IMG/VR virus record: IMGVR_UViG_3300034198_012226
Location: 1 to 64,000 of that record
Source of the DNA: a virus
Strand: one strand, 5' to 3'
DNA: 64,000 bases
Shown: positions 2,699 to 63,255 of the stretch, in pieces
How the letters are laid out: every line of letters begins with the position of its first letter
Position numbering within the stretch: position 1 is the stretch's first letter
Notes under the pieces: generated by a model
Told to the model about the DNA's origin: nothing
Databases searched by the model: none
The model's input: the letters and a program-made list of their open reading frames with translations, nothing else
Made by a program: the position numbers and the translations under genes

Positions 2699-3562
2699 AT
2701 GGACAAGAACGCAATGCTGGCAATGGCACTTCCGGACGGCCTGTGGGCTGGTACGGAATCGACCCTACACTCACTGGTGGCCCGCCTGATGGCGATCCAC
2801 GAGCGCCCGATTCCTGAAGCGGCCATGGGCTACAGCTCGGTCACCGCGCAGAAGGAGGAGCCGCCCCCGTACCTGCTCTCGATGCAGGGCAGCATCGCCG
2901 TCATCGACATCAAGGGCGCGATGACCAACGCCACGAGCTGGTGGGACCGCTACGACAAGGTCTCGACCTACCCGGCGATCCGCGAGGCCCTGGTGTACGC
3001 CGCCCAGTCGCCGAGCGTGAAAGGCATCCTGCTTGACATCGAGTCGGGCGGCGGCGCTGTGGCAGGTATGTTCGATACCGCCAACATGATCCGTCACATC
3101 AACGACAACGTGAAGCCTGTCGTGGCCTTCGGCGAGACCATGTTCTCGGCGGCGTACTGCCTGGGCTGCGCGGCTGGCCAGGTGTTCTCCTCGAAGTCGT
3201 CGGGCGTCGGCTCCATCGGCATCATCGCCACCCACATGGACTACTCGAAGATGTATGCCGACATGGGCATCAACGTCACGGTCATGCGCTCGGGCAAATA
3301 CAAGGCCCTGGTCAACCGCTTCGAGCCGCTGACCGACGCTTCCCGCGAGCAGTTCCAGGACGGCATGGACGCGAACTACGACGTGTTCATCGAGCACGTC
3401 GCGTCGATGCGCGACACGACCAAGCAGACCGCCGACAACAAGATGGCCCAGGGCCGTGAGTTCTACGGCCAGGCAGCTCAGGAAGCAGGACTTGTCGATG
3501 CGATCACCTCGTTCGATCAAGTGCTTGCCGCTCTGCAAGAAAGTGTTGACAAGCAACACTAA
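2699..3562 (+). CDS. Prohead protease, S49 (SppA/ClpP-like) family
   Basis: Motifs ILLDIESGGG, MFSAAYCLG, GVGSIG, SGKYK, AQEAGLVD characteristic of peptidase S49; head module position. Confidence 0.9.
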   Translation: MDKNAMLAMALPDGLWAGTESTLHSLVARLMAIHERPIPEAAMGYSSVTAQKEEPPPYLLSMQGSIAVIDIKGAMTNATSWWDRYDKVSTYPAIREALVYAAQSPSVKGILLDIESGGGAVAGMFDTANMIRHINDNVKPVVAFGETMFSAAYCLGCAAGQVFSSKSSGVGSIGIIATHMDYSKMYADMGINVTVMRSGKYKALVNRFEPLTDASREQFQDGMDANYDVFIEHVASMRDTTKQTADNKMAQGREFYGQAAQEAGLVDAITSFDQVLAALQESVDKQH

Positions 3563-3575
3563 GGTCATCCACAAT
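3546..3575 (+). promoter_or_regulatory. Putative sigma70-type promoter for the scaffold/capsid operon
   Basis: TTGACA-18 nt-CACAAT ahead of ATG 3605. Confidence 0.45.
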
Positions 3576-3604
3576 TCAACAAAATTTAACTGAGGAAATA
3601 TCCC

Positions 3605-4273
3605 ATGGTACGCAAAGTCTTGAATGTGGCGGCTCTCGCAGCTCTCGCATCCGGCGCTTCCCTCCAAGCGAGCGCCAATTCGGCTCCGGCAGCAACCGCA
3701 CCAGTCGCTGCGTCGGGTGCTTCCCCTGAAGCTGCGGCTGCTGCCGCTGCTGCACAGGCCGCTGCTCCGGCAGCGACCACCGAAGGTACGGGCGGCGCTG
3801 CGCCTGCCGCTGAAGCTGCTGCCGCCCCGGCTGCTGCTCCAGCCGCTGCGGCTGCACCCAGTGTAGCCGCTGCTCCAGCAGCCGCCCCTACCGACGTTAC
3901 GGCCTATCTGCAAGGCCAGATCGCCACCAAGGACGCCGCCCTGCTCGCCGCAGGCGTCGAGACCGCTGCCCTCAAGGCTCGCGTGACCGAGTTCGAGGCG
4001 TCGATGAACGGCCTGATGGAAATCGCCCGTGCTTCCCTGACCAACATGCGCGTCGCCCTCGGCGGTCACAAGACCGACCTGTCGGCGCTGTCCGCAACCG
4101 AACTCCTGGCACAGCACGAAGCTGCGTCCAAGGACTTCGGCAACCAATTCGTTGCTGGTGGTGTTGCTGCTGTTGACGCCGCACAAGAAACGAATGCCAG
4201 CCGTGCGCAGGCTCCGGACTCCCTGGAGATTGCCCGTCTGAACGCTGTCGCTGGCACCCGCAAGCGCAGCTAA
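3605..4273 (+). CDS. Putative capsid scaffolding protein (Ala/Pro-rich N-half, coiled-coil C-half)
   Basis: Position between protease and capsid genes; GAGGA SD; low-complexity then helical sequence. Confidence 0.6.
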   Translation: MVRKVLNVAALAALASGASLQASANSAPAATAPVAASGASPEAAAAAAAAQAAAPAATTEGTGGAAPAAEAAAAPAAAPAAAAAPSVAAAPAAAPTDVTAYLQGQIATKDAALLAAGVETAALKARVTEFEASMNGLMEIARASLTNMRVALGGHKTDLSALSATELLAQHEAASKDFGNQFVAGGVAAVDAAQETNASRAQAPDSLEIARLNAVAGTRKRS

Positions 4274-4310
4274 ACACCACCACTTCATCCACTTTTATTA
4301 GGAAAGCAAC

Positions 4311-6529: not shown

Positions 6530-6532
6530 CCC

Positions 6533-7024: not shown

Positions 7025-7899
7025 TGAAGCTCTCGGACGTGGGCCGCGTCTTCGACACCATGACCATCCTGGACGCCTCCGGCAAGACCAGGCCGGTCAA
7101 GGGTCGCATCCTGCCCTACGACGACAACTCGCGGGACAGCCTGTCTGCCGACCGGCGCATCCTCTCGATGGTGCCTGGCACCGCGATTCCGGCCCGCCGC
7201 GTGATCCACGCTGCCGGGGAATACTGGATCGTGGGTCAGGTCACCGCCGACTTCCATGGCGACGAGCCGCTCCGGCAGAAGTACGTGCTGCACCGTGTCG
7301 ATGGTGTGGCGCGGGTGGCCACGTTCGAGCAGGCGATCTCCGGCGTCGGCGGCGTGACAGCGCACGTCGGCCGTCTCTGGATGAAGGACATGAAGGAGCC
7401 GGAGGAGTCCTCCTCGCTCTACGAGTCGTTGCACTTCTACCTCTCGACCACCGAGGACATCCGTGACCAGTCGAAACTGACCGGCCCGTTCCTGGACGGC
7501 GAGGAGACCCACGTACTCATCCACTTCAAATCGAAGTGGCACCTGGTGCGCAACACGTTCGAGTCCGCTGGTGGCTTCCAGGTTGCTGTGGTGGACGAGC
7601 TGCCTGATCCGGTGGCCATCGCCGCCACGATCAATTCGACCGTCTACGACAAGCTGGCCGACAAGAAGGTCGCCACCGGCAAGACCGTACAGGCCCTGAG
7701 CCTGCGCTGGCAGTCCCAGTACACCTACCTGTCGTCCTACTCCACGAAATACGAGGAGGGCGACCGCGTGCTGATGGTGCTGAAATCGGACACTACACCG
7801 ACTGTAGCCGACACCGTCACGCTGCGGGGCCGCACGTTCAAGGTCGTCACGGTACTTGACCAGGCCAACGTCTGGGCCTTGCACCTCCGGCATGTTTAA
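7021..7899 (+). CDS. Putative head-closure / neck protein
   Basis: ATGA-coupled to the upstream gene; C-terminal TVTLRGRTFKVVTV beta-barrel-like stopper pattern. Confidence 0.5.
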   Translation: MMKLSDVGRVFDTMTILDASGKTRPVKGRILPYDDNSRDSLSADRRILSMVPGTAIPARRVIHAAGEYWIVGQVTADFHGDEPLRQKYVLHRVDGVARVATFEQAISGVGGVTAHVGRLWMKDMKEPEESSSLYESLHFYLSTTEDIRDQSKLTGPFLDGEETHVLIHFKSKWHLVRNTFESAGGFQVAVVDELPDPVAIAATINSTVYDKLADKKVATGKTVQALSLRWQSQYTYLSSYSTKYEEGDRVLMVLKSDTTPTVADTVTLRGRTFKVVTVLDQANVWALHLRHV

Positions 7900-11091: not shown

Positions 11092-14000
11092 ATGAACGAC
11101 GCCATCTCAACTATCGGACTAGGTGTAGACACCAAGCCGGGTCTCGAACACCTCAAGGAGTTGCGTGCCGCTTTCGCCGGTTTGAAGGCCGACGTGAACG
11201 ACCTCAACAACCTGCGGGCGAGCGCAGATGGCCTCGTCGGCGGGGCCGGAAACGCCTCGGCGAAGCTGACTACACTGAGTGCAGAGTTGAAGGCTGCGAA
11301 GGCGCAACTCGCTGAAATGCAGGCCCTGGCGCAGAACGCCTCCCGCACGGAAGTGTCCACTGCCCAGAGCACGGCCCAGGCCGTCATTACCGCCTCGGGC
11401 GGTAAGCTGCGTGCTGTGGTCGAGGACGAGAAGAAGGCGGCTGAGGCCGTCCAGCGGTACGAGAAAGAGAAGACCGCCACGGTCGTGGAGGAGTCGAAGA
11501 AACGCGAGAACCTGGCCAAACTGAACTACTCGGCCAAGTTCGGTAGCGCCTCGTACAGCATGGGGTCGGTCATCCCCGTCGATCAAGCCCAGGGCAAGAT
11601 CATCCAGAAAATGCTGGAGGATCAAGCGCGCATCATGGAGACCAACGCGGCCCGCCGCACGGCCATGGACAAGGCTGTCGAAGCCGAGCACCGCGCCGGG
11701 ATGCTGGCGTCGGCTGCACTGGACGAAGCGACCCGCGAGAAGATGCTCGCGGATCACGCGGCATACCAGGCAAAGAAGATCGCCCTTGACCGTGAGGCCG
11801 AGCTGCGCCACCAGCAGATGATCCTGGAAAGCTCCGTCAAGGACGCCGCCGCCTTGCAGGCCCGCCTGGAGGAGACCCGCCGCTTCATGCAGGCCGAGGC
11901 CAACCTCCAGAACAAGGAAGCCTACGCTCGCAAGCTGGCCGAGCAGGATCAGGAATACAAGCTCCATCTGCTGCGCCAGGAGGAGTACGCCGCACGTCAC
12001 CGTGAGCTGGAAGCGACCTTCCGCGCCGCCGAGGTGGAAGCGAACCGCCTGAAGCTGCTTGCCCAGAACCAGCAGTACCAGCTCCACCTGATGTCCCAAG
12101 CCGAGCACCTGAAGGAGTGGAAGCAGATCCAGGCCCTGATCGCCAATGACGAGCGGGAAGCCAAGCGACTGAAGCTCCTGGAGCAAGATCAGGATTACAA
12201 GCTGCACCTGGCTCGCCAGGCCGAGTATCAGGCGCGTCACCGCGAGCTGGAGGCTACGTTCCGTCAGGCCGACCTGGACGCACAGAAGGCGAACCTGCTG
12301 GCCCAGAATCAGCAGTACCAGCTCCATCTGCTGGCCCAGAGCGAGGCCCTGGCCAAGCACAAAGCTGCACAGCGTGCCATGGTGCAGGACGCCAACTTCA
12401 CGACTGCCCCGTTGTCGAGCCAGGTTCGCACCGTTGGCCGCGCCAAGGCGCTGGTGGACAACGGCCAGGCTGACCTCGCCCGTGACGTGTACGGGCCAGC
12501 AGCAGTTGGTGCTGTAGGCAAGCTGGACGCCATGATCGCCCAGTTGAATGCAACCCAAACGCAGGGCCATGGCATCAAGTCCGAAGCCGCCAAGCGCCAG
12601 CAGCACCTGACCCAGTCGATGAACGACGCCCACTCGGCTGCTCGCGGCCTTGCAGGGGGCCTCGGCCAGCTCTGGGTGACCTGGGGTAGCACCGTGCCGC
12701 TGATCGCTGGCGCGGCCATCTCTGGCTCGATGGCGAAGGTCTTCACGGCGGGTAAGGATGTCGAATTCCAGCTCCAGTTCCTGAAGGCGCTGTCGGACGA
12801 TGTCAAGGCCCCGGACATCAACATGGATGGTTTCATGACCATCACCCAGGGTTCGATGTCCAGCGTCAAGGAGGCCGCGCAGGGTATGCGTGCGCTGGCC
12901 CAGGCTGGCCTCGACCAGAAGTCGGCCCTGGCTGCGCTGCCGGACGTACTTGACCTTGCGGCTATTGGCGAGATGAAGGTCGGCCAGGCCGCGATCACCG
13001 CGACCGGCGTCGTCAACGCATTCGGTCTTTCCATGACCGACATCGGTCGTGTGGGCGACGTGTTTGCCCGCGTCGCTGCGGCGTCGAACACCTCGGTTGC
13101 CGCCATGACCGAGTCGATGAAGCAAGCCTCGACGGTCGGCGACATGTTCGGCCTGACCCTGGAGCAGGCGTCCGCGTCTATCGGCGTGCTGGCACAGCGA
13201 AACATCCTGGGCACCTCGGCCGGTACCGCGCTGACCACCGCGCTGAAGAACATCTACGAGCCGACCGCCAAGGCGAAGGCCGCGCTCGACGCGCTCAACA
13301 TCACGACCGACGATGGTAAGGGTGGTCTGAAGGACTACACCCAGATGATGGACGAGCTGCGCCTGAAGCTCTCCCAGTTGAACGATTCCGACAAGGCTGT
13401 CTTCCTGGGCACCATCTCCGACCAGCGCGGCGCAAAGGCCCTGTCGGCGATCACCAAGAACTACGACGAGTATCTGGATTTCCTGGGCAAGACCACGGAA
13501 GCACAGGACTTTATGAGCAAGGGCACGCTGAAGCTCGAAGACACCGTCCAGGGCGCATTGCAGCGCATGGCTAACACGATGGATCACACCTTCGTGCGCG
13601 GCTTCGAGAAGGCACAGCCTGCGATCCGTGGCGTACTGCGTGAGATGACCGCCATCGCTGGTGACCACTCCCTTGAGGAGTGGATTGCCCGTGGTGCTGT
13701 GGGATTCACCCGCCTGACCGCGACCATTGTTGAACACTCAGGTAAGATTCTGTCCCTGGTCGGCGTGTACATGGGCCTGAAGATCGTCAGCTCGCTGACG
13801 AACGCCTTCGTCGCCTACCGCACCCAAGTTGCGATGGCTACACTGGCTACAGCCGCCAATACCGCAGGCACCCAAGCCAATACTGTCGCCCTCACCATGC
13901 AGGAGCGCGCAGCGGCCATGGTCGGCGCTACGGCCATTCGTTCGGCGGGATTCCTGCGCCTGATGACCGCAGCAGCCGGCCCGCTGTCACTGGTCGTGAT

Positions 14001-25618: not shown

Positions 25619-25701
25619 GACTGCACTCAGTGTAGGCAGGAGAAGGTGGCGCGAACTGATGACTTGAAGTAATATTGGCCAAAGTCAACAAGGAGTTCAC
25701 C

Positions 25702-28628: not shown

Positions 28629-28650
28629 CCCTAAAGTCAGTGTAGTCAGG

Positions 28651-50993: not shown

Positions 50994-51023
50994 TCAGGAC
51001 TCCAGTGAGTGTAGTGGTCAGAG

Positions 51024-51047
51024 AAAAGGCCCCACGAGGGGGCCTTT
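51024..51047 (-). terminator. Rho-independent terminator
   Basis: AAAGGCCCC-CTCGT-GGGGCCTTTT on the - strand after gene 51069..51944. Confidence 0.75.
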
Positions 51048-52107: not shown

Positions 52108-54954
52108 TTACCGGCGTTGTTTGAATTCTTCCACGTTGTCCTTCGCAAGGTGCGTCACGCTGAACTCGAAGACGGCGGTCGATGCCGAATCCTTCAGCGG
52201 CGACTCGCTGCACAGGGTGTCCACTGTGCCTGGGTAGGTGGACATGGCGTTGAAGTACGCCTCGAAGCTGTCGTACAGCACCTCCTCGCCGAGCGACCGC
52301 TTGTGCTTGACGTACTTGGTGAAGCAGTTCCGCAGGCGCAGGAACAGCGCATTGCCGTCCACCACGTAGTCCTCGCCCTCCAGGAGCTGGACGCTCTCGT
52401 TGTCGCCGTAACGCGACAGGAAAGCCATGGCGTCGAGCACCTTGGCGGCTTCGGACACGACCTTCGGGATCAAGGTCTCGGCGGTGTCGGTGACAGCTTC
52501 CTTCATCGCCCTGAAGTCGTCATCGAACTCGTTGCCGAAGACCTCGCGCATCATGAGCTGGCCGAAGTCCAAGCCGGTCAGCAGCACCGCGACGTTGTAC
52601 AGCGGCCGGTCGTTGTCGTCGGCCTTGCTGCCCACCTTGGAACGCACCACCTCCATGTTCCGTTCGATCTGCTTGCGCAGGCCGTCAGGTGGCATGGCGC
52701 GGGCACCGTCGATGCAGCGGCGACCGAGCATCGACAGGTACTGGCGGTTGGCCTGGCAGTAGACGAACTTCTCGCGGCGATCCTTCTTGCCCTCCTTGGT
52801 GATCGGCACAGCCACGCAGCGGTCAAGGATCGCGGTCTGGCTGATGATCGCCTCGCCCATGACCACCATCGGCGAGCGGTTCGAGACACGGGTCAGCATC
52901 AGCTTGCTCTGGCCGGTCGTGGAGCTGACCGAACCCTTGCCGATGGTGTCGCCGTTGTAGTTCGAGCGCAGGATGCCCTTCGACTTCTCCAGCAGGCGCT
53001 TGTCCATCTCACGCGGCTTGTACTCCTCCAGGATGAACGGCATCGAGCCGGAGCACGTCGCCATTTCCTCGAACACGAACTTGGTCGAGTCCAGGGCCGA
53101 CGACATCAGCGGCTCCTGGTGGAAGTAGTGGAGCCGCGCCAGCAGCTTGATCGTCTCGGACTTGCCGGAGCCTGCCGGGCCGTACACCTGGAGGAAGGGG
53201 TACTTGTTGTACAGGTGCCGGATCATCTGGGACAGGAAGGTGGACAGCATGAAGCCGAACACCCGCGCCACCACCTCGCGCTTGTTGATCTGGAACAGGT
53301 TGCGGAAGAACTCCCGAGCCTCCTCGCTGTCCTCCAGCTCCGGTGCCATGCGCAAGTCCGTCCGGAACTGCAAGTCGTCCGTCATGCTGCCAGTCAGCCT
53401 GTAGTTGATACCCAGGCTGCTGGTGACGCCGAACTGGTCGGCCCAGATGATGTCGGTCTCGCCTGTCGGGGTGGTGACCAGGTCGATGCCCTCCCTGCGG
53501 ACGGTATAGACTTGCTGATTGTTTTTCATGGTACGGACTCGGAAGATGTCGGCCAACGCGCCGATCTGGGCGTCGGTCAAAGCGATGTTGCAGCTACCTG
53601 CACTCAGTGTAAATTTCAAAAAACTGCTGCGGGATGCGAAGGCGTCCATCCCGATAATTTTCGGCCGGCTCGGGCCACCTTCGATGCTCACGTCCACTTC
53701 GTAGCCGTGGACTTCCCCGGTCACCAGGTCGAGGAGCTGCTTCGGGTTGGCCAGGCCCAGGGCCGAAGCCTTGAGCACCTGGCCATCCTTCTTGATGTAG
53801 ATGCCGCTGCCGGTGACACGGATGCCCTGGGACAGCGAGAACTCCTCCTCCTCGGCCAGCACCTCGTCGCCGCCTTCCTCCTCGGCGATGGCACCCATGT
53901 CCAGGTCGGGCGCTCGCACGTCCTTGTCCATCAGGTGCTTGATGCCGCCGACCGAGAACGAGTACCCAGGGTTCCCGTTCATGTAGGCGTACATCCTGGA
54001 CAGCTCGCGGCGGCGCTTCACCGGGTTGCCGTAACGGTCGCTGTTGCCCTGGTGGTTCTGGATCAGGCCAGCGCACGCCTCCAGGAACTCGTCCTCCTTC
54101 ATGTTCATCGCGTGGGCCGCGATGGCAAGTTGGGTGGCGATGGCCTGGAAGCCCACGTCGCCGTTCAGGTACTCGCCGTTCATGACCGCCAGCAGCGTCG
54201 GGGGAATCTTCCCGCCGAAGCTGGCCAGGATGTTCTGGTCGGCCTTTGCGTTCTTCCGGCGCTTGAGGGCCTGGTCGATCTTGGTCTGGGCCTTAGCGAA
54301 GATCAGACCCAGGTCAGGGTTGTACGTCGCCGGGTTCGGCGGTGCCATGTGGCGCGGCGTCGAGCACAGCGTCTGGTACTGCTCCAGGGTCAGGTTCAGG
54401 GCCTCCTCGACCGTGATCTGTACCTTGTGGCGACCAGTGCCCTTGCCGTCCTTCTGGCGCTCGATGTTCTTGACCCGCCACATACGGCCCTTCTTGGCCG
54501 AGTAGATGTTCAAGTCGAGCGTGTCCACGAACAGCTCGTTGGCCATCTCGCGGTAGATCAGCGGCAGCGCAGGCATCCCGCGAGGGGGCACCTTCGACAT
54601 GAACATGTTCGGGTTGAACTCGATGTGGAAGCCCCGACCGCCCGTGATGAACAGCGCGAGCTGTTCCAAGTCCACGTTCTGGTCGTCGCGCAGGTTGGCC
54701 AGCAGCTTCTTGAACTGGGCGATGACGTTCTCCGCGTCCTCGTCGTCCAGGTCAATGTAAAAAGGCCCACGATAGTGAACCTTTGCCAGCTCGTCAGCAG
54801 TCAGCTCGGTCTCGAAGCTGTTGTCGGTGTCGAGGACGGTGACGAAGGCGGGGCGCTTGTCCTTGATGACACGCTCGCGCTCGCTGGCCAAGCCCAGGAA
54901 CCACTTCCCGTCGCCCTCGTGCGTCTTCTTGTATTGGAAATACCAGGTTGTCAC
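52108..54954 (-). CDS. Primase-helicase fusion (AEP-like N-terminus, P-loop helicase C-terminus)
   Basis: FYIDLD and TGGRGFH (AEP motifs I/II), GRMWR; Walker A GPAGSGKS, Walker B ILEE, arginine finger DRC. Confidence 0.8.
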   Translation of the reverse strand: MTTWYFQYKKTHEGDGKWFLGLASERERVIKDKRPAFVTVLDTDNSFETELTADELAKVHYRGPFYIDLDDEDAENVIAQFKKLLANLRDDQNVDLEQLALFITGGRGFHIEFNPNMFMSKVPPRGMPALPLIYREMANELFVDTLDLNIYSAKKGRMWRVKNIERQKDGKGTGRHKVQITVEEALNLTLEQYQTLCSTPRHMAPPNPATYNPDLGLIFAKAQTKIDQALKRRKNAKADQNILASFGGKIPPTLLAVMNGEYLNGDVGFQAIATQLAIAAHAMNMKEDEFLEACAGLIQNHQGNSDRYGNPVKRRRELSRMYAYMNGNPGYSFSVGGIKHLMDKDVRAPDLDMGAIAEEEGGDEVLAEEEEFSLSQGIRVTGSGIYIKKDGQVLKASALGLANPKQLLDLVTGEVHGYEVDVSIEGGPSRPKIIGMDAFASRSSFLKFTLSAGSCNIALTDAQIGALADIFRVRTMKNNQQVYTVRREGIDLVTTPTGETDIIWADQFGVTSSLGINYRLTGSMTDDLQFRTDLRMAPELEDSEEAREFFRNLFQINKREVVARVFGFMLSTFLSQMIRHLYNKYPFLQVYGPAGSGKSETIKLLARLHYFHQEPLMSSALDSTKFVFEEMATCSGSMPFILEEYKPREMDKRLLEKSKGILRSNYNGDTIGKGSVSSTTGQSKLMLTRVSNRSPMVVMGEAIISQTAILDRCVAVPITKEGKKDRREKFVYCQANRQYLSMLGRRCIDGARAMPPDGLRKQIERNMEVVRSKVGSKADDNDRPLYNVAVLLTGLDFGQLMMREVFGNEFDDDFRAMKEAVTDTAETLIPKVVSEAAKVLDAMAFLSRYGDNESVQLLEGEDYVVDGNALFLRLRNCFTKYVKHKRSLGEEVLYDSFEAYFNAMSTYPGTVDTLCSESPLKDSASTAVFEFSVTHLAKDNVEEFKQRR

Positions 54955-55624: not shown

Positions 55625-57046
55625 TCAGCGCCCGAACAGCGCGTCCCGAATGTCCTTGTGGTTTCTTACCACACGGTTGACCAGCTCGTCCTTCTTCATG
55701 AGGATGTCGAGCAGTCGGAGCTGGATGGTGCCCTCGGCGATCCCCACCCGGATATGCACCTTGCGCTTCTGGCCATTCCGGTACACCCGGCCCACAGCCT
55801 GCTCGAACTGGGTCGGGATCAGCGGCGCTTCCATGAACAGCACGTCCGAGCAGCAGTCCTGGAGGTTCAAGCCGTAGCCCGCCGACTGCACCTGGGCCAC
55901 CAGCACCCGGCACTTCGGATCGGTCATGAAGCGGTCGATGTTCTTCTGCTGCTGACCGGCGCTGATGTCGCCGAACACGGCCACCGACCCGTGCTTCCGG
56001 GTGTGCTCGGTGACGTGGCGGCTGGTCAGCTTGTAGTTCGTGAAGATGATCAACTTCTTGTGGTGGCCACCGGCATCCAGCTCCTCCTGCTCGGCCTCCA
56101 GGTCTTCGAGTACCTGGTCGATCAGGTCGAAGCCAGCGGACAGGTTCGCCGGGTCGTCGCTGAAGTGGTCGTAGTTCATGACCAACTGCTGGAGTGCGTG
56201 CCAGAGCCGGGTCGTCTGGGTGGCATCGAACTTGTGACCGTCCTCGTACTCCAGCAGCTTCTCCTCGGCGAGCTGGTGGTACAGCTTCATGTGCTTGGGG
56301 TCAAGCTCATAGTGCATCGGCGAGTACGTGATGTCCGGCAGCTCGGTCAACACGTCCTCCTTCAGGATACGCACCGAGTTCACCCGCATGTTCTTGTTGA
56401 GCATGTCGAGGTTCTTGTACGTCTGGGGAATCCCGAAGAAGTCGTAGGTATCGACGTGGATGCCTTCGTACTGCGTGTAGCTGCGGTAGATCGAGGGGGC
56501 CAGCAGCTTGACGTAAGCGTAGCCGTCCAGGATTTTGGCGAGCGGGGTGCCGGTGAGGAGCATCAGGTGGCCGGTCATGCTGAAGTCGCGCACCCGCTGA
56601 TAGTTCTTCGACTCGTAGTTCTTGACGGCGGTCGCCTCGTCGGCGATGACGCAAGTCCTCTCGTGGTCGAAGGCCATGCAGATGCGGTCGTAATCCCGCT
56701 TGAAGATGTCGTAGCTCATCAGGATGAAGTCGGTCTCGAACGTCATCGCTGCGCGCTTCTTCGGCGACCCGGCGTAGATCATCGCCGTGACACCTCGGAT
56801 GCTCTTGAGCCAACGGTACCAGGCCATCAGCAGGATCGGCGGCATCAGCACGATCACCCTGTCGATCTCCCCAACCTCCTTCTTGTAGAGGGCGCTGACA
56901 GTGGACGTTGCCGTCTTGCCTACACCGACTGCAAGGTAGTGCCCGGTCTTCTGCCGTGGGGCCAAAGCATCGACCGTCTGGATTTGATAACCGTAGAGGG
57001 TGAAAGGCAAGCCGTACCGGCTCGCCACGAGTTCATAGGGGGTCAT
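55625..57046 (-). CDS. SNF2-like superfamily 2 helicase
   Basis: YQ Q-motif, GVGKT, IADEAT, LTGTP, GYGLNLQ, QAVGRVYRNGQ. Confidence 0.9.
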   Translation of the reverse strand: MTPYELVASRYGLPFTLYGYQIQTVDALAPRQKTGHYLAVGVGKTATSTVSALYKKEVGEIDRVIVLMPPILLMAWYRWLKSIRGVTAMIYAGSPKKRAAMTFETDFILMSYDIFKRDYDRICMAFDHERTCVIADEATAVKNYESKNYQRVRDFSMTGHLMLLTGTPLAKILDGYAYVKLLAPSIYRSYTQYEGIHVDTYDFFGIPQTYKNLDMLNKNMRVNSVRILKEDVLTELPDITYSPMHYELDPKHMKLYHQLAEEKLLEYEDGHKFDATQTTRLWHALQQLVMNYDHFSDDPANLSAGFDLIDQVLEDLEAEQEELDAGGHHKKLIIFTNYKLTSRHVTEHTRKHGSVAVFGDISAGQQQKNIDRFMTDPKCRVLVAQVQSAGYGLNLQDCCSDVLFMEAPLIPTQFEQAVGRVYRNGQKRKVHIRVGIAEGTIQLRLLDILMKKDELVNRVVRNHKDIRDALFGR

Positions 57047-57530: not shown

Positions 57531-58342
57531 ACACTAACTTTTTCCATTCCGGTGCTGCCGAAACCGCCCGAGCCGCGCTCGGTCTGTTCCAAATCAGTCA
57601 CAACTTCCCAGTTCGGGATGATGACCGGCACCACCATGAACTGGGCAATGCGATCCATCGGCTTGACCGTGAAGCTGGCCTGGCCACGGTTTTCGAGGAT
57701 GACGCCGAGTTCCCCGGTGTAGCCGCTGTCGATCAGGCCAGGGCCGTTGGCGACCGCCACCAGGAACTTGTTGGCCAGGCCGCTGCGAGACATCACGTAG
57801 CCTGCGGTGCCGGGGGCGAGCTTCACGGCGATGCCGGTCATGATCAGCAGCTTGCTGCCCGGTTCGATGACGGTCGGCTCGGTCACCGACGAGGCCACCA
57901 GGTCGAACGCGGCGTCGCCAGGCTTGGCGTAGGCAAGCTGCACCTCGGGGTTGATGAACTTGACCTTGAAGGGCAAGTCCGAATTGGCGTGAGCCGGACG
58001 GATCGTGACGCCGCTCGGGGTCAGGAAGTTCGCAGGGGTGCCGTCCTGGTAGTCGAAGGAGCCGTCGCCCAGGACGATCAGGGCAGGCTTCGCAGTGGCC
58101 ACGGTGGCAGCGTCGGCCATCTCAGCCTTCTCGAAACGAAAGCCGCCCTTCTTGATCGCGGTGTTGACGAACACACCGACGCTCTGGGCCTGGCACAGTT
58201 CGAGGAACGTGTTGACCGGCACGTCGAAGTATTTGTAGGTGCCGCCCTTCATCTGGAGGTAAAGGTCGGTGCCATCGTGGACGGCGCGTTGGATGTTCGA
58301 TGAGTTGCGGAATTCGACTACACTCAGTGTTGGGTTGTTCAC
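57527..58342 (-). CDS. dut: KTSC domain - trimeric dUTPase fusion
   Basis: N-terminal SSNI.......LYLQM.GGTYKYFDVP...F.EL..AQSVG.F (KTSC); all five dUTPase motifs AAFDL, SRSGLA, GLIDSGYTGE, DRIAQ, RGSGGFGSTG. Confidence 0.88.
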   Translation of the reverse strand: MNNPTLSVVEFRNSSNIQRAVHDGTDLYLQMKGGTYKYFDVPVNTFLELCQAQSVGVFVNTAIKKGGFRFEKAEMADAATVATAKPALIVLGDGSFDYQDGTPANFLTPSGVTIRPAHANSDLPFKVKFINPEVQLAYAKPGDAAFDLVASSVTEPTVIEPGSKLLIMTGIAVKLAPGTAGYVMSRSGLANKFLVAVANGPGLIDSGYTGELGVILENRGQASFTVKPMDRIAQFMVVPVIIPNWEVVTDLEQTERGSGGFGSTGMEKVSV

Positions 58343-58343
58343 T

Positions 58344-58601: not shown

Positions 58602-59073
58602 CGGCCACCTTCGGCTTATACAGTGGGTCAGCCCCGATGTAGATCGCCTCGGGGGCTTCTGGGTAATTGCGACGGATGTAGTCGAAGTCACCTTCGTTCC
58701 ACCTGCGGAGGAGATCTACCTTCTCGTCATCGTCGTCCATAAAGCTGCCCTCACCCCCCAGGATGAACTGGATGATGGCTACGGCTGCGTCAGTGCCTGT
58801 GTAGCTGACCACCGGGGCCTGTCCCTGCTTCATCCGATAGTCGTTGGCACGCTGGAAGGCGTTGCTCGCTGCGTCCATGACCTGGGCGTCGGTGCCCAGG
58901 GCAGTGGCCATGTAGACGAAGTGCTCGACCACATCAGCAAGGGTCTTCTCCGGGGTGGCCGGAACCCTGGCCAGCGGTGAGTTGCTACGGTAGTCACCCT
59001 TGGTACTGCCGCCGCCCTCAAACTTGAACGTGAATTGGACGCGCACGTCCTTGAATTTATCGCTCACGATCAA
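58531..59073 (-). CDS. Hypothetical protein
   Basis: 4-nt overlap with the ParB-like stop; FLRxW-like LLRRWNEGDFDYIR. Confidence 0.55.
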   Translation of the reverse strand: MIVSDKFKDVRVQFTFKFEGGGSTKGDYRSNSPLARVPATPEKTLADVVEHFVYMATALGTDAQVMDAASNAFQRANDYRMKQGQAPVVSYTGTDAAVAIIQFILGGEGSFMDDDDEKVDLLRRWNEGDFDYIRRNYPEAPEAIYIGADPLYKPKVADGPQVDEAGHAEAGPATPDQSGS

Positions 59074-60107
59074 GCAGCCTTCTGCTGTGGGGTGGCCACG
59101 CCAGCGCGTTCAGCAGCGATGGCTTCCTCGATCTCCGGGGTGAACTTGTCCTGGAGCTGGAGCATCAGCTTAATCGCCGCGCCGGTCAACTCCACCGGGT
59201 ACATCTCGGTGTCCACGATATTGCGCGGCTTCTTGATCTTGTCCGGCAAGGCGAAGGCAAGGTCACGCGCCGTCTTGGCCTGGGCTTCCTGGCGCTTCTT
59301 CAGGGCCTTGGCTGCGGCCTTCGCAGCGGCCTCCTGTTCGGCTTTCTGGGCGGCGGTGACACTTCCCTCGTCCTCGCCCTCGTTTTCGCCGCCTGCGTCG
59401 TTCTGGGCGGTCTGCTCGTGCTTCGGCGTGACCTTGGTCTCACCCTTGCCCGCAGCCTTGTCCAGCGCGGCCATGATTTCTTCGTAGGCTTTCTCGCCGT
59501 GCTTCTTGTGGTACTTGACCGCTTCCTCGGCGGCGATCTTGTTGGCGCGCACCAGAGCCTTCACGTCGTCCGGCAGCTTCGAGATCACGATCAGACGGTC
59601 GATCCAGCCGACCGACTTGTTCAGTTCCTTGGCGATCTCCTCACGGGTGCAGCCGTCTTCACGGTACCAGATCGTGTGGTCAGCCTGTTCGATTGGCGTG
59701 AGGTGCTCGCCCTGGTTGGCCTTGAAGGACAGGCTGCGGGCCTGGCGTTCGGTGCCGGTGAAGCGGATCACTTCGTATTCGGTGATGCCCTTCTCGCCGC
59801 GTTCACGCATGGCTTTGTCAGCGCGGCACGCTGCGGTGTAGCGGCACTCGCCGTCAACGATCTCGGCGGTGTTGCCGTCCATGGCCATGCGGACGATTGG
59901 GAGCGGGACGAAGTCGCCAGCCTCGTAGGCAGCTTGCAGCTCGGCGATCTTGGCCTGGGTCTCGGGCTTTTGCAGATCGCGGGGGTTGAAGCCCTGCTTG
60001 ACGCTGATGCGATTCAGCGGCAGCTTGAGGTGCTCGGCCTTCTTCACGTCTTCGTTCTCACGCTCGAACTCGCGGAAGTTTTTGGCTGGCTTGGTATTTG
60101 CGGACAT
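59070..60107 (-). CDS. ParB/KorB-like protein (ParB N-terminal domain plus HTH)
   Basis: GFNPR, PLPIVR...IVDGECRYTAA (ParB box II-like), N....LTPIEQA, HTH TREEIAKELNKSVGWIDRLI, LPDDVKALV. Confidence 0.85.
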   Translation of the reverse strand: MSANTKPAKNFREFERENEDVKKAEHLKLPLNRISVKQGFNPRDLQKPETQAKIAELQAAYEAGDFVPLPIVRMAMDGNTAEIVDGECRYTAACRADKAMRERGEKGITEYEVIRFTGTERQARSLSFKANQGEHLTPIEQADHTIWYREDGCTREEIAKELNKSVGWIDRLIVISKLPDDVKALVRANKIAAEEAVKYHKKHGEKAYEEIMAALDKAAGKGETKVTPKHEQTAQNDAGGENEGEDEGSVTAAQKAEQEAAAKAAAKALKKRQEAQAKTARDLAFALPDKIKKPRNIVDTEMYPVELTGAAIKLMLQLQDKFTPEIEEAIAAERAGVATPQQKAA

Positions 60108-60163
60108 GGTGGTATCTCTCATGATTTGAGGTTGGATGGGTACTGCGGGAAGGGTGCTGCGGG

Positions 60164-60385
60164 TTACTGCTTGGACTGGCTGTCCGGAACGTCGGGATCG
60201 AACTCCACGAAGTAACCGTTGCCCTCGACACGCTTCTTCTCGTGGCACTGGGACGGTTTGAAATCGTGGGTGCCCATCAGGACGAAGCACAGGGCATTGG
60301 CAAGTCGCAGTGCCCTGGTACGGCTGCTTGGGTAGTAGTGCTTGACCACCTTATCGTCCGAGCGTCCGAAGTGGATGGCGTACAT
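60164..60385 (-). CDS. Hypothetical protein
   Basis: ATG with GAGGA SD; 73 aa. Confidence 0.55.
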   Translation of the reverse strand: MYAIHFGRSDDKVVKHYYPSSRTRALRLANALCFVLMGTHDFKPSQCHEKKRVEGNGYFVEFDPDVPDSQSKQ

Positions 60386-60433: not shown

Positions 60434-60473
60434 GAAAGTCCAAAACTAGGGATGTCCTGAAAGAGACGCACTC

Positions 60474-60502
60474 AGTGTAGGACATTCCTGCCGGAAAGTC
60501 TA
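60474..60502 (-). promoter_or_regulatory. Putative promoter whose -10 lies inside a 15-bp palindrome copy
   Basis: TAGACT-17 nt-TACACT on the - strand. Confidence 0.4.
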
Positions 60503-60727: not shown

Positions 60728-61020
60728 TTGGGTTCCTTGTTGTACTTCCGGTTCAAGATGGCCACGATTTCCAGGGCCTCGTACTTGCGGTGCCAGCCGC
60801 GCCGCACGGCGACGTTGTAGTGCGGGTGGTGGCGGCGCGGCACGTCGGGACGGGCCACGATTTTGATGACGCGGTTCGGCTCGCGTCCGAACACATACCA
60901 GCCAGGCCCCTCGGCAGGCGAGCGATCCACGAAGAACTCCTCCGTGAAGCTGCGCTCTACGCCATAGCGGGTGTCGGTCATGGCGTACTCGGTTGGGGTC
61001 TCGGTCTTCCACTTAGGCAT
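60724..61020 (-). CDS. Hypothetical protein
   Basis: AGGAG SD; coupled to both neighbours. Confidence 0.55.
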   Translation of the reverse strand: MPKWKTETPTEYAMTDTRYGVERSFTEEFFVDRSPAEGPGWYVFGREPNRVIKIVARPDVPRRHHPHYNVAVRRGWHRKYEALEIVAILNRKYNKEPK

Positions 61021-61708
61021 GGGGCTTCTCCTGTTTCAGTTCAATGACGCGCTGCGCCACCTTGAAGCGAGCGCCGTGGACTGTGAACCCGACGATGGCC
61101 TTGCGATTCGGGTCTTGACAGAGCTGGCACACCGAGCACGTCATGTACTCGACGGTCTGGGCAGGGCACACCGTGATCTTGCGGCCGGCTGGTGTCGTCT
61201 TCCCTTTCCAGCCTCGCGGCAGCATGGTCACGACCGGGCCTACACCCAGTGCAGCCAGCTCGTCGGCTTCCTCGACGGTGTCAGCCGAGAGGTTGACCGT
61301 GAAGCCGAGCTGGTTGGCGAGCTGCACCACGCGCTGGTTGTGCGGCGTCATCGGGTAGTGGGTGTAGGTGAAGCCCCGACGCCCTACGTTCGCTGCGGTC
61401 AGGCCAGCCAGGTAGAACTCGTCAATGACGTTGTCGGTGCCGATGAGATCGCCAGCCTGGTTGTGACGCCAGATTTGGTTCTTCTTCAGCTCCTTGATCC
61501 GGAACAGGAAGCCGTCCCAGGTGTAGCCCTTCTCACCACGGGTCACCTTGTCCCAGTGGATTTTCATGGGGAAGTTGTCGGCGTAGCAGCCGTTCCCCTT
61601 CAGTTGGCAAGCGTCGGGGCAAGTCTGTCGCCCCGACGTGGAGACCGGGATCGGCCCCGTCTTGCTGTTGCCCGACTCGCGCCGGAAGTACACCGTGATT
61701 TCGGTCAT
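61013..61708 (-). CDS. Cys-rich Gp88-like / radical-SAM-like putative Fe-S protein
   Basis: NSKTG, TCPDAC...GCYA, WRHNQAGD, FTYTH, NLSAD, CPAQ...TCSVCQLC, F.VHG. Confidence 0.6.
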   Translation of the reverse strand: MTEITVYFRRESGNSKTGPIPVSTSGRQTCPDACQLKGNGCYADNFPMKIHWDKVTRGEKGYTWDGFLFRIKELKKNQIWRHNQAGDLIGTDNVIDEFYLAGLTAANVGRRGFTYTHYPMTPHNQRVVQLANQLGFTVNLSADTVEEADELAALGVGPVVTMLPRGWKGKTTPAGRKITVCPAQTVEYMTCSVCQLCQDPNRKAIVGFTVHGARFKVAQRVIELKQEKPHA

Positions 61709-61750
61709 TGCTTTCCTTTCGCCCCGCTATGTGCGGGGTCGTTGCGGGTG

Positions 61751-62575
61751 CTAGGCACCCTTGGTGAAGAATTTGCGGGAGTCGTAGTTCAGGGTGACGC
61801 CGTCGCGGTGCGTGAGGCCGGTGGCGCTGTCGTTGTGCTTGAACACGACCAGCCAATCGTACTTGCCCTTGATGACGCTGTAGCCGGTGTTCGCCCAGTA
61901 GACGGTGTCTCCGGCCTCGACCCGCTGCTTGATCTCGTCCACGGTCATGCCGACCTTGTGCTGGAGGCGCTTCCGGTAGGAGTCCTCGACGGCGTCCTCG
62001 TACTTGTCCCACGACTGCTTCGAGAGCTGCTGGCCGCAGTGAGACATGCAGCGGTACTGCTGGCCGTCAGGAACGATGTGGAAGCCGTCTTCTTCGAGAC
62101 GCTCCTGCATGAACTCGGTGCGCAGCCAGGAGGCCGGGACGCCGTAGGCGAGGTAGTCACCGCTGTCGTCCAGGTTCCCGGCGTTCGGCACGCACGGGGA
62201 GCAGCGACCGCACTCGGTCAGGACAGGCGACTCGAACACGTACAGGTGCTGTGCGCCGCCGAGCCAGGACGTGCGGTACTTGACGCCTTCGTGCTCGCCT
62301 TCGTAGATCGGCTCGTTTGGTTCATAGCTGTCGTTGAAGTCCTGCTTGATCTGGTCTTCATCGAACTCAGGCGGCTCGCCGTCGTTGTCCTCGGCAGCTT
62401 CGACCAGGGCGTCGTGGGCACGCTTCATCTCGGCCAGGTGGTCTTCCCAGGCCGACTCGTAGTGCGCGTCCTTGCCGTGCTTGTAGCACAGGTCGTCCCA
62501 CAGGTCAGGGTCGATGCCGAAGGCATGGATGTAGCCGTAGGCGAAGCCGGTTTGGGGGTGGAGGTTGGCAAACAT
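61751..62575 (-). CDS. Hypothetical acidic protein with CxxCxPC motif
   Basis: TAATG coupling; ECGRCSPCVPNAGNLD. Confidence 0.6.
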   Translation of the reverse strand: MFANLHPQTGFAYGYIHAFGIDPDLWDDLCYKHGKDAHYESAWEDHLAEMKRAHDALVEAAEDNDGEPPEFDEDQIKQDFNDSYEPNEPIYEGEHEGVKYRTSWLGGAQHLYVFESPVLTECGRCSPCVPNAGNLDDSGDYLAYGVPASWLRTEFMQERLEEDGFHIVPDGQQYRCMSHCGQQLSKQSWDKYEDAVEDSYRKRLQHKVGMTVDEIKQRVEAGDTVYWANTGYSVIKGKYDWLVVFKHNDSATGLTHRDGVTLNYDSRKFFTKGA

Positions 62576-63255
62576 TAGCGCATCCCCCCGAACATCCGAC
62601 CCAGGGCCTCGCCGATCATGTCCTCGGCCCGCTTCTGCTTGGCCTTCTCCATCTTGGCAAGTACGGCCGGGGTTGGCGGCTCGATCTCGTACTCGTGGTT
62701 GTTCAGCACCTCGACCATGCGGTCGGCGACCTTCAGGTGCATCTCGCTCTTGTCGATCATGCCCTGGACTTCGGACATGACGCTGGCCATCAGGCCCGCC
62801 GCCTGGTTCTCGCCGGTCTTCGCGGTCGTGCGCTTCATGGCCTTCTCGATCTTGTCCCGCATCTTGACGTGGCCGTCGCGCTCCTCCTTCGTGTCGCGGT
62901 GGATTTCGCGCACCTTGCCGGTGATCTCGTCCAGGATGTCGGTGTGTTCGACGTACTCGGTGTCCCGGATGATGAGGGCGATCACGTTGCGCAGCGCCTG
63001 CATCGCGGTGGAGTTGATCTTCTCCTCCTCGGTGGCGCGGCCATCGTGGCGGTAGGTGCCGGTGGCGTCGTAGCGGGTACGGCGCTCGATGTCGGACAGC
63101 ACGTCGTAGGCTTCCTGGATCATCTGGAAGCGCATCTTGTCGCCGTCAGGCTTGTCGGGGTGGTGCTGCTGCGCCAGCTTGCGGTATGCCTTCTTGATTT
63201 CGGCCTTGCTCGCGTCGCGGGCTACACCGAGTGTTTCGTACAGATCGTGTTCCAT
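62575..63255 (-). CDS. J-domain (DnaJ-like) co-chaperone
   Basis: [26 protein letters not shown]...[16 protein letters not shown]. Confidence 0.92.

Follow-up and report, generated by a model that had tools for sequence, protein, structure and literature searches.

The genome of this uncultured bacterial virus (record G000, 86,481 bp; the window referred to below is its first 64 kb) carries an array of about 30 pseudo-palindromic 15-bp sites, which is under selection at the DNA level, is evenly spaced around the phage chromosome and is conserved in relatives as an array, though with a changed sequence dialect. The array co-occurs with a gene for an orphan protein of the ParB/Noc/KorB family, and with a probability of roughly 0.58 we take the sites to be the cognate parS-, NBS- or OB-like sites of this phage protein (table 1).

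All 24 site strings that an initial annotation of the window had listed were found at their positions, and 21 of them deviate from the consensus CTACACTSAGTGYAG at no more than three positions; the other three (22825, 38574 and 48082) each contain the hexamer CTACAC, with the letters as listed. Strand matches to CTACACTSAGTGYAG number 39, against a mean of 3.84 (s.d. 2.39, maximum 13) in 100 dinucleotide shuffles, none of which reaches 39. Similarly, CTACACYSRSTG occurs 20 times in the 86,481-bp record, whereas its backwards control does not occur at all. A position-weight scan retained 23 of the 24 listed sites, placed 22825 below threshold and added 21176; over the whole record it yields 31 sites in both orientations (18 on the plus and 13 on the minus strand). 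Their description as pseudo-palindromes holds in that mirror symmetry is present, but they are better described as one strong half-site, CTACACYSRST, lying within the pseudo-palindrome CTRCACTSAGTGYAG and accompanied by a weaker mirror half.

Table 1. Array sites and the candidate reader gene in window coordinates.
Feature	Position	Strand	Context
Site CTACACTCACTGGTG	2765..2779	+	Head-module gene; same position kept in G001
Site	3852..3866	- (strong half)	Site end is stop codon of ORF 3624-3866
Site	7793..7807	+	Coding; kept in G001
Site, 0 mismatches to consensus	11270..11284	+	Tape measure gene
Site	13838..13852	+	Tape measure gene
Site, second half weak	14616..14630	+	Tape measure gene
Site	19465..19479	+	Coding; G001 copy kept, central bases changed
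Candidate site CTACACCGACTACAC, absent from earlier list	21176..21190	+	Score 19.7
Weak listed site, reads CTACACTGGATGAGG	22825..22839	-	Below score threshold
Site, 0 mismatches to consensus	25621..25635	-	Intergenic, directly past stop of ORF 24905-25618
Site	28631..28645	-	Intergenic, adjoins terminator-like hairpin
Site	31013..31027	+	Coding
Site	33469..33483	+	Coding; G001 counterpart degraded
Site	35655..35669	-	6 nt upstream of likely true thyA ATG (35648); CTGGAG end doubles as thyA ribosome-binding site
Site	38574..38588	+	SbcD-like gene; kept in G001
Site	40960..40974	-	Ribonucleotide reductase gene; kept in G001
Site	45434..45448	-	DNA polymerase I gene; kept in G001
Site	48082..48096	-	Exonuclease gene; lost in G001
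Site	51000..51014	-	Intergenic, between terminator-like hairpin and ribosome-binding site/ATG of ORF 50730-50993
Site	53598..53612	-	Primase gene, peptide FTLSA; only position common to G000, G001 and G002
Site	56920..56934	+	Helicase Walker A (LAVGVG), synonymous choices only; identical over 27 nt in G001
Site	58318..58332	+	dUTPase-fusion gene; G001 strong half on opposite side
Orphan ParB/Noc/KorB-family gene (350 aa)	59070..60122	-	Candidate reader of the sites
Site	60466..60480	-	Intergenic, ~340 bp upstream of ParB-like gene; G001 counterpart ~326 bp upstream of G001 ParB gene
Site	61240..61254	+	DUF7227 gene
Site	63222..63236	+	DnaJ-domain gene; lost in G001

Most sites lie within genes (23-24 of 31, in both orientations), and the 24 coding sites are distributed over the three reading frames as 3, 14 and 7. 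The strong half occurs 30 times in the whole record, compared with 9.29 +/- 1.23 (maximum 14) in 300 synonymous-codon shuffles. As these shuffles left intergenic DNA intact, the seven intergenic matches among the 30 also make up 7 of the 9.3 expected, so that the coding comparison is about 23 observed versus about 2.3 expected, i.e. a roughly tenfold enrichment. Moreover, 54 of the 99 codons wholly within sites end in A or T, against 16.8% genome-wide (P = 1.4e-17); ACA, AGT, GTA and CTA are used at 5%, 4%, 4% and 1% among their synonymous codons in this genome. The rare-codon strings initially quoted from the tape measure, polA and helicase Walker A genes are all correct, and the helicase provides a direct contrast: its peptide LAVGVG is written CTT GCA GTC GGT GTA GGC in G000, with rare codons and a site, and likewise in G001, but in the relative G002 the codons are the preferred CTG GCC GTG GGC GTG GGC, which make no site. 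Together with an excess conservation of the sites (see below), these data bear out the earlier proposal that the sites are selected as DNA. CTACACC by itself is frequent, since it encodes Tyr-Thr, and the added site at 21176 could be a coding coincidence of this kind (Tyr-Thr-Asp-Tyr, with all four codons preferred ones). For the array as a whole, however, an origin by chance or as a side effect of codon or peptide choice is ruled out by its enrichment over synonymous and dinucleotide shuffles, its rare codons, its occurrence in three reading frames and in unrelated proteins, its even spacing and its conservation in relatives.

The coding location also bears on a role of the motif in RNA, or as a promoter with TACACT as -10 element. 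Some intergenic copies do lie directly upstream of start codons and TACACT fits TAnnnT, but the majority of sites are in coding sequence, they face either way with respect to the gene, the 7-1-7 layout does not allow a complete hairpin and there is no enrichment of -35 elements, which makes such a role very improbable.

The spacing of the sites is far more even than expected for random placement. In G000, the 31 sites have a spacing coefficient of variation (CV) of 0.50, compared with 0.95 +/- 0.16 for random placement (P = 1e-4). The corresponding values are 0.45 for the 28 sites of G001 (none of 20,000 random placements was as even) and 0.56 for the 29 sites of G002 (P = 6.5e-4), with one site per roughly 2.8-3.1 kb. 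The evenness persists at five score thresholds.

Of these relatives, G001 is ~75% identical to G000 and G002 is distant. About 11 of the 28 G001 sites share their position with G000, and the 13 fully aligned sites are conserved at an identity of 0.836, where the null expectation is 0.746 (P = 0.0098). With G002, only one of eight alignable G000 sites is shared. Despite this turnover, site number is steady at 28-31 in each of the three genomes. G002 has no CTACAC-type motif; instead, it contains 23 exact copies of CACTNAGTG (control 0) with the consensus TCMCACTNAGTGKGA, which shares its inner 9 bp with the G000 motif and departs from it in the outer 3 bp. The G002 sites are for the most part perfect palindromes, and a second 7-1-7 palindrome family is also present in this genome. 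Two further relatives, G003 (complete, 85,865 bp) and G004 (a 53-kb fragment), have structural and replication modules in common with the array-bearing phages; a de novo method, which places the motif at the top of its ranking for each of G000, G001 and G002, found no dispersed motif in either of them. The same palindromes also recur as local repeated elements in unrelated viral contigs.

What could read these sites? The candidate gene encodes a protein with an N-terminal ParB domain, a helix-turn-helix and a conserved C-terminal region. A profile of the protein's family matches Spo0J (1vz0, 3e-13), Noc (7ol9, 1.7e-12), Myxococcus xanthus ParB (7bnk, 4.6e-12) and KorB (1r71, 4e-7) over the N-terminal domain and the helix-turn-helix, while the Pfam matches are below the curated cut-offs (ParB_N, 14.8 versus 26.3 bits; HTH_ParB, 21 versus 22.6 bits). 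The N-terminal domain contains G-E-C-R-Y-T-A, which fits GxxRxxA, with G, R and A invariant across 19 homologues; because this box II is GECRYTA rather than GERRxRA, use of CTP by the protein is uncertain. The gene is present in all three array-bearing phages, where it is among the 32 of 93 ORFs common to them and encodes the only recognisable sequence-specific DNA binder in this shared set; it is absent from G003 and from the 53-kb fragment G004. Thus, array and ParB presence or absence agree in five of five genomes, including the fragment G004. Furthermore, the recognition helices of G000 and G001, which share a motif, are identical save for one V/I position, whereas that of G002, with the other motif, differs at eight positions, a covariation that rests on two specificities. 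As G003 and G004 are distant, further genes also differ between the two groups; ligase, ThyA, a dATP/dGTP diphosphohydrolase and several ORFs of no known function occur in G000-G002 and were not found in G003. The second palindrome family of G002 could equally be the target of its ParB. In the temperate phages PHB09 and MD8, which have ~30%-identical ParB-like genes, no palindrome array appeared in an exact-palindrome scan, which misses the G000 motif too. Neither a ParA nor a KorA-like partner was identified in the phage.

Alternatively, a different dimeric DNA-binding protein, i.e. an unrecognised phage repressor, a nucleoid-type protein or a host factor, may bind the sites as dispersed, stoperator-like operators or roadblocks, with the ParB-like protein unrelated or binding elsewhere. 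Most of the 93 ORFs belong to no recognisable family, and an unrecognised binder among them could be the reader. The strong half follows the direction of transcription in 29 of 43 coding sites (G000, 17 of 24; G001, 12 of 19; combined P = 0.03, with shared sites counted as independent), which a purely symmetric binder does not predict. Several intergenic sites immediately precede a ribosome-binding site with its ATG or adjoin terminators, the second family in G002 shows that further palindromic operators exist in these phages, and the local repeats in unrelated contigs point in the same direction. However, 23-24 of the 31 sites are within genes in both orientations, a -35 partner accompanies 3 of 31 sites (background 9.5%) and no integrase, and hence no sign of a lysogeny repressor, was found in the phage. 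A host factor would also leave the even spacing without obvious explanation, and the array follows the ParB gene in all five genomes, with a recognition helix that covaries with the dialect. We regard a different binder as rather unlikely.

Programmed single-strand interruptions in virion DNA, as in T5, phiKMV-like phages and tf, seem improbable. Like localized nicks, the motif is dispersed, conserved and also located within genes, its TAC-type letters loosely resemble the tf/phiKMV nick consensus (as given in PMC3517423), and G000, G001 and G002 each encode an ATP-dependent ligase, whereas none was detected in G003. Yet, according to PMC3517423, the nick motifs of these phages are asymmetric and confined to one strand; known nick maps are also uneven (in tf, the left half holds 11 of the 14), whereas the sites described here are palindromic, on both strands and even. 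In addition, the strong half is flipped at one orthologous site, double-strand nicking of the mostly perfect G002 palindromes would cut the genome, and a six-frame search yielded no HNH domain.

A similarly low probability applies to the sites being targets of a site-specific DNA modification, to which the ParB-like protein or another factor guides the modifying enzyme. G000 encodes a PAPS-reductase-like protein (record position 76502-77290), a family that is paired with ParB-like proteins in DndB/DndC and IbrB/IbrA, and the phage carries ThyA, a dUTPase fusion and the dATP/dGTP diphosphohydrolase. Moreover, ParB-like proteins from phages are known activators of thymine dioxygenases (bioRxiv 10.1101/2025.08.14.668559). 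These dioxygenase-linked ParBs are, however, described in the same preprint as having no DNA-binding domain, which the protein here does have; the PAPS-reductase-like gene is missing from the array-bearing G001 and G002, the six-frame search detected neither Tet_JBP nor an N6_N4 methyltransferase, and even spacing would have no obvious role.

The initial annotation had likened the sites to parS/KorB operators, stoperators and nick sites, and had suggested organisation, protection or silencing of the chromosome as candidate roles. Among the three analogies, the first fits best, because a dimer-type palindrome and an orphan ParB/KorB-family protein are conserved together and are both absent from two relatives, whereas stoperators and nick sites, with asymmetric motifs on one strand or in strict orientation, fit worse. 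Known stoperators are generally found in small gaps between genes and in strict orientation. Those of Cluster A mycobacteriophages resemble the array in their ~25-35 genome-wide copies of a short motif and a phage-encoded binder (PMC9283540, PMC6550527; here a predicted one), and in the mild co-orientation with transcription seen here, but they are asymmetric 13-mers read by the monomeric immunity repressor of temperate phages; the sites here are palindromic, mostly coding and evenly spaced, with no integrase found in the phage. The Noc/NBS system of Bacillus subtilis also combines a ParB-family protein that has no ParA partner or ParA-binding motif with dozens of palindromic sites scattered over a whole replicon, and the Noc structure 7ol9 is among the best profile matches. 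Noc, however, is a chromosomal ParB paralogue with ~70 sites on 4 Mb, which stay clear of the terminus and are not known to be evenly spaced, and it tethers DNA to the membrane via an N-terminal amphipathic helix; the array here, in a phage for which no integrase was found, has about one site per 2.8 kb. KorB of the IncP plasmid RK2, with 12 OB sites and IncC as ParA partner, is likewise a ParB-CTPase-family protein with a helix-turn-helix, acting on odd-length palindromes with a central C/G that are dispersed over a mobile element. RK2 OB sites are near promoters and KorB has the clamp-locking partners KorA and TrbA, in contrast to the mostly intragenic, even array here. The OB core is visible in an oligonucleotide printed in PMC11790492, which also describes KorB-CTP as loading at OB sites and then sliding, so as to act at a distance. 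Chromosomal and plasmid ParB-parS systems share the domain pair, the GxxRxxA motif and an inverted-repeat site, but their parS sites, of even length (16 bp), cluster close to the origin and serve ParA-driven segregation, unlike the odd, genome-wide 15-mer of this phage. Robust binding of Pseudomonas aeruginosa ParB to many single half-parS sites (PMC5961200, PMC10419367) matches the one-strong-half anatomy. ParB proteins of the orphan type are frequently encoded by phages and mobile elements (PMC12704722); our literature search found no description of such an evenly spaced ParB-type array in a phage.

We infer that the ParB-like protein is the binder, that it loads and spreads, and that the resulting coat has the role suggested below. 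A ParB dimer would read both half-sites via its helix-turn-helix, with a good half and an incomplete mirror half being enough for binding. If the protein has kept the nucleotide-switched clamp action of ParB, Noc and KorB, clamps would load at each site and spread from there to neighbouring DNA. Selection appears to act on the whole array, holding ~30 sites roughly every 2.8-3.1 kb and thereby providing a loading point near every stretch of the chromosome. This would explain why even essential genes carry sites despite their rare-codon cost, and why the array keeps its number and spacing although single sites come and go. The probable outcome would be that the phage coats or condenses its chromosome uniformly with its own ParB, so as to mark, compact or shield its DNA in infection.

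The array of short pseudo-palindromes that the initial annotation had listed at 24 positions in the window clearly exceeds what chance or codon usage would produce. The consensus proposed there is matched at no more than three mismatches by 21 of these sites, and the remaining three contain the CTACAC core, with sequences as given there; a scan with this consensus yields 39 strand matches as compared to 3.84 expected, a number reached in none of 100 shuffles. When codons were shuffled synonymously, the 11-letter core, present 30 times in the record of this phage (G000), was found 9.29 +/- 1.23 times (300 shuffles), and as 7 of the 30 copies are intergenic and hence were left unshuffled, this amounts to about 23 coding copies versus about 2.3 expected. 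Neither maximal-order Markov k-mer enrichment, which failed to reveal so degenerate a motif, nor open-ended refinement of position weight matrices (PWMs), which drifted to an Asp-Thr-Asp codon pattern (CGACACCGAC), was suited to this motif, and seed-fixed matrices were used instead. These detect 31 sites in G000 versus 3 in a reversed-sequence control, with 24 of the 31 located in the window; here, 23 are identical to sites listed initially, 21176 is added and 22825 falls below the threshold. The palindromic nature of the sites has to be qualified, however: a mirror half is present in the site alignment, but only one half is strong (CTACACYSRST), with the mirror half being weaker (...G.AG). 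Exact 15-mer scans of IMG/VR gave mostly single matches, which is about the chance level estimated for 14 fixed letters. The same palindromes recur as local repeats in three unrelated contigs (L058, L195 and L172), which we treat as coincidence among many phage operators. One of these, L058 (IMGVR_UViG_3300022200_005881; 4.5 kb, 47% G+C), is a viral contig with six perfect TCCCACTSAGTGGGA palindromes, four of them directly 3' of a TTGAAC/TTGACT/GTGAAA/GTGTTT-like hexamer, which gives them the look of promoter-operator repeats; that this word is identical to the motif version of the relative G002 described below is probably coincidental.

The sites are mostly embedded in genes (23-24 of 31), and essential genes, i.e. 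those for the tape measure, the polymerase, the primase and the helicase (in its Walker A motif), are recoded to hold them. As initially described, they occur in both orientations (18 + / 13 -), in different frames and in rare codons: 24 coding sites split 3, 14 and 7 over the three reading frames, a skew that probably arises because frame 0 puts an in-frame TAG at the site end, and 54 of the 99 codons wholly within sites end in A or T, as compared to 16.8% genome-wide (P = 1.4e-17). Where gaps between operons exist, the sites seem to use them; three intergenic sites directly adjoin a G+C-rich hairpin followed by a T-run, i.e. a terminator-like structure (28631-28680 and 51015-51045 in the window; ~72,080-72,124 in G001, a close relative). 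In G000, 17 of the 24 coding sites have their strong half pointing in the direction of transcription, as have 12 of 19 in G001; this mild polarity might reflect codon constraints. A promoter or RNA role of the sites is not supported; no association with -35 elements was seen. Stoperators, a further class of dispersed site, are asymmetric, strictly oriented with transcription and intergenic, and belong to temperate phages with an immunity repressor. The G000 sites differ from those of Cluster A mycobacteriophages in being palindromic, largely coding and oriented both with and against transcription (17 versus 7), and a six-frame search of the whole G000 record found no tyrosine integrase.

Conservation in related phages, as expected for sites selected at the DNA level, was found in G001, an IMG/VR phage of 86,761 bp that is collinear with G000 and ~75% identical over the aligning 45-48% of G000. 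It contains 22 exact core matches (none in the control) and 28 matrix sites (1 in the control). Fifteen of the 31 curated G000 sites align to G001, and a recognisable site is kept at 11 of these, with 3852, 33469, 48082 and 63222 being lost or degraded. Counting the lost ones, 13 fully aligned sites show an identity of 0.836 versus 0.746 +/- 0.040 for random aligned 15-mers (P = 0.0098). Seen from G001, 11 of its 28 sites map no more than 40 bp from a site in G000 (including one wrap-around case counted by hand), and for 4 more the distance is 70-170 bp, in DNA that aligns poorly. At two orthologous sites the central base has switched between C and G, and at 58318 the strong half is on the opposite side in G001. 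This flip also bears on the idea that the sites are programmed nick sites: a ligase does co-occur with the array, but nicking is an unlikely function for sites that are palindromic, occur on both strands and can be reversed at an orthologous position. Nick motifs are described in PMC3517423 as asymmetric, restricted to one strand and unevenly placed, and the localized nicks of T5, phiKMV-like phages and tf are associated with a one-strand motif, from which the G000 sites clearly depart.

The more distant array-bearing relative G002 (84,785 bp, rated 98% complete; 32 of the 93 G000 ORFs in common) uses a different version of the motif. It has no exact match to the CTACAC-type core (18 one-mismatch matches versus 31 in the control), but 23 exact copies of CACTNAGTG (control 0) and 29 matrix sites (control 0) with the consensus TCMCACTNAGTGKGA, which agrees with that of G000 in the inner nine letters and differs from it in the outer three. 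Among eight coding sites that can be aligned at the protein level, a single position is shared between G000 and G002, that in the primase (peptide FTLSA), which has a site in all three phages. By comparison, LAVGVG, the Walker A peptide of the helicase, is identical in G000 and G002, yet G000 and G001 encode it by rare codons that form a site, whereas G002 uses preferred codons and has no site there. With so few shared positions and yet an array in all three phages, individual sites must turn over, while their number (28-31) and spacing persist, even across phages whose ParB proteins are only ~35% identical. This spacing, the regularity of which had been no more than suspected initially, is far from random: the 31 G000 sites have a mean gap of 2,787 bp with a coefficient of variation (CV) of 0.50, as compared to ~0.96 +/- 0.16 for random placement (P = 1e-4). 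A hand-curated site list gives 0.48, a value as low as this occurring in 0 of 20,000 random draws, and the evenness is stable over five score thresholds. The CV is 0.45 in G001 (as low in 0 of 20,000 random draws) and 0.56 in G002 (P = 6.5e-4).

The phage carrying this array has a genome of 86,481 bp with an 87-bp terminal repeat and ~62% G+C; the IMG/VR record, the first 64 kb of which form the window, is rated complete. Its 93 ORFs were called with our own crude GC3-based ORF picker, i.e. not a trained gene finder, with the thyA start corrected by hand. No cultured phage gave a megablast match to 8 kb of G000, and the nearest cultured polA relatives are Vibrio phages (~27% identical). Roughly 95%-identical strains occur in aquatic and wastewater samples (assembled contigs of four public sequencing runs).

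Modules and selected genes of G000 (window positions equal record positions)
Feature	Position	Strand	Content
Head and tail module	0.2-33.9 kb	+	large terminase, portal, major head protein, 2,592-aa tape measure
Replication and nucleotide module	34.5-78.7 kb	-	ThyA, SbcCD-like proteins, ATP-dependent ligase, ribonucleotide reductase, DNA polymerase I
Replication and nucleotide module, further genes	34.5-78.7 kb	-	exonuclease, primase, helicase, dUTPase fusion, dATP/dGTP diphosphohydrolase
thyA, long ORF	34683-36077		464 aa
thyA, from probable true start	34683-35648		321 aa
dATP/dGTP diphosphohydrolase N-terminal domain	48940-49734
KTSC-dUTPase/dCTP-deaminase-like fusion	57527-58480
ORF next to ParB-like gene	58531-59073		180 aa; PHROG 10115
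ParB-like gene	59070-60122	-	350 aa; ORF 59070-60290 restarted at codon 57
PAPS-reductase-like gene	76,502-77,290 (L039:13502-14290)	-	Pfam 6.7e-9; PHROG 424, 1.5e-32

Several further features of this genome deserve mention. The Pfam thymidylate synthase domain starts at residue 150 of the long thyA ORF, and site 35655 followed by GGAG lies 6 nt upstream of the probable start codon (ATG 35648). ThyA occurs together with the diphosphohydrolase domain and the dUTPase fusion, a hint that the phage may remodel its nucleotide pool and perhaps use a non-canonical base. The PAPS-reductase-like gene is present in G000 only; its family pairs with ParB-like proteins in the Dnd and IbrAB systems. A low-complexity GGCA/GGCACC region (~81,650-82,420 of the record) holds eight copies of GGCACCGGCAGTGCC; TCTTATATAAGA occurs four times in the record, and the hexamer GGCACC 224 times on both strands of the genome. 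It is possible that the array sites are targets of a site-directed DNA modification, but no modification enzyme is conserved across G000, G001 and G002, and six-frame searches of the whole G000 record detected no N6/N4 methyltransferase or TET/JBP domains. Such searches found no HNH domain either.

Which protein, then, might read the sites? Among the 32 ORFs common to the three array phages, the only recognisable sequence-specific DNA binder is an orphan ParB-like protein, assigned to PHROG 1033 ('ParB-like partition protein'; 1.4e-39). With a family profile of 19 homologues, Spo0J, Noc and M. xanthus ParB are matched from residue ~25 onwards (3e-13 to 1e-10), which covers the N-terminal ParB/Srx-fold domain. 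When KorB is included (3e-13 to 4e-7), the matches to these structures span this domain and the helix-turn-helix directly following it, with the alignment to Spo0J, Noc and KorB extending through the latter. The single sequence matches 1vz0 at 2.5e-5, whereas Pfam ParB_N (14.8 bits versus a cut-off of 26.3), HTH_ParB (E = 3.7e-4) and KorB (5.6e-4) stay below their cut-offs, the latter two slightly. The box II motif GxxRxxA is present as G-E-C-R-Y-T-A, with G86, E87, R89 and A92 being invariant in the 19 homologues, but the protein has other residues in place of two of the three arginines found in canonical GERRxRA. The conserved, charged N-terminus (KPAKNFREFERENEDVKK) shows by eye no LG[KR]GL-type ParA-binding motif, and a six-frame search of the whole record revealed no ParA-type ATPase (AAA_31). 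As ParABS systems comprise both, we do not file the array as a partition system. The recognition helix reads KS[V/I]GWIDRLIVISKL in G000 and G001, which share one motif, and WSASYIDKLEAISNL in G002, which uses the other. Two conserved ORFs of unknown function, one resembling Pam3 gp34/Gp3-like proteins in a protein atlas and the other giving no match there, do not point to an alternative reader. The 180-aa ORF overlapping the ParB-like stop codon by 4 nt, for which tblastn found no match in G001 or G002, may be translationally coupled to the ParB-like gene because of this overlap.

ParB and array also go together in their absence. G003 (complete, 85,865 bp) and G004 (a 53-kb fragment), reached via the portal protein, have structural and replication modules in common with G000, but no ParB homologue and no dispersed motif detectable by a de novo seed-cluster method ranked by fraction, which puts the motif first in G000, G001 and G002. 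The control here was Markov-3 simulation, as reversal keeps repeats and thus renders a reversed-sequence control meaningless. Flank-information seed scans found the G002 motifs, but ranked that of G000 low, and an exact-palindrome scan misses the G000 motif, which leaves little weight, taken by itself, to its lack of hits in the temperate phages PHB09 and MD8 and in G003 and G004. Co-occurrence of array and ParB is thus consistent in 5 of 5 genomes, a small sample in which G003 and G004 differ in many other genes as well. Close homologues of the ParB-like protein are mostly encoded on contigs of 84-87 kb, and a cluster-representative protein library contains 189 matches at <=1e-30 and 14,658 at 1e-3; searches of metagenome and genome contigs with the ParB alignment returned only short or distant loci without a CACT-type array. 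In G002 (IMGVR_UViG_3300037419_001469), a second 7-1-7 palindrome, CCATTTACNGTAAATGG, occurs at 14 sites with at least one half within a ~20 kb early region (25,342-45,471; loci L035-L036); most copies finish with GGAG, an ATG following within a few bases, and G000 and G001 showed nothing comparable. The palindrome may act as an operator in translation or transcription. Its copies mostly lie directly in front of ribosome-binding sites, that of the ParB gene itself included. It could also be this palindrome rather than the array motif that is the target of the G002 ParB-like protein.

On sequence grounds, the array sites are most likely cognate sites of the orphan ParB-family protein, which would bind them as a dimer. 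A symmetric binder does not predict the polarity of the strong half with respect to transcription. By analogy, one good half-site with a partial mirror half may suffice, as half-parS binding has been reported for P. aeruginosa ParB (PMC5961200 and PMC10419367). The sites could then serve as loading points for a nucleotide-switched clamp that subsequently spreads, as with ParB, Noc and KorB; KorB-CTP has been shown to load at OB and then slide (PMC11790492). If so, the even spacing of ~2.8 kb would fit selection for uniform coverage of the entire chromosome. Candidate purposes include compaction, marking or shielding of phage DNA, Noc-like membrane tethering or KorB-like global regulation. In Noc, tethering is mediated by a membrane-targeting amphipathic helix at the N-terminus. 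Taken to its conclusion, a phage with neither integrase nor partition ATPase would build its own chromatin, with ~30 evenly spaced sites loading a ParB-type clamp that coats the whole chromosome, a tentative model to which we give a probability of roughly 0.3. Such a coat might mark the chromosome as self and compact it or shield it against host nucleases, SMC-type defences or the phage's own nucleases, and selection would act on the density of sites rather than on single sites.

The component parts of this system, a ParB-family protein and a palindromic site, are already known, and phages and other mobile elements widely carry ParB-fold proteins of the orphan type, with largely unknown roles (PMC12704722). 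In the literature searched, which included passages of this paper and had subscription journals outside its coverage, no phage genome is described as carrying a dispersed array of ParB sites. What we did not find in print is the combination of an orphan ParB on a phage without detected integrase or ParA with ~30 evenly spaced and mostly intragenic sites, in an array that outlasts both turnover of its sites and a change of motif. The locus thus offers a testable pairing of one orphan ParB with one 15-bp site in ~30 copies and two natural motif versions, G000 and G002 representing a ready-made specificity-swap experiment, and the motif provides a simple genomic signature for locating such phages. 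The rewriting of essential genes in rare codons to hold the sites is an unusual constraint. If the coating model is true, the CTP-clamp paradigm would extend from segregation and plasmid silencing to the organization or protection of a whole viral genome; a phage chromatin of this kind would put the ParB switch to a new biological use and provide one of the rare examples in which spacing itself is a selected trait.
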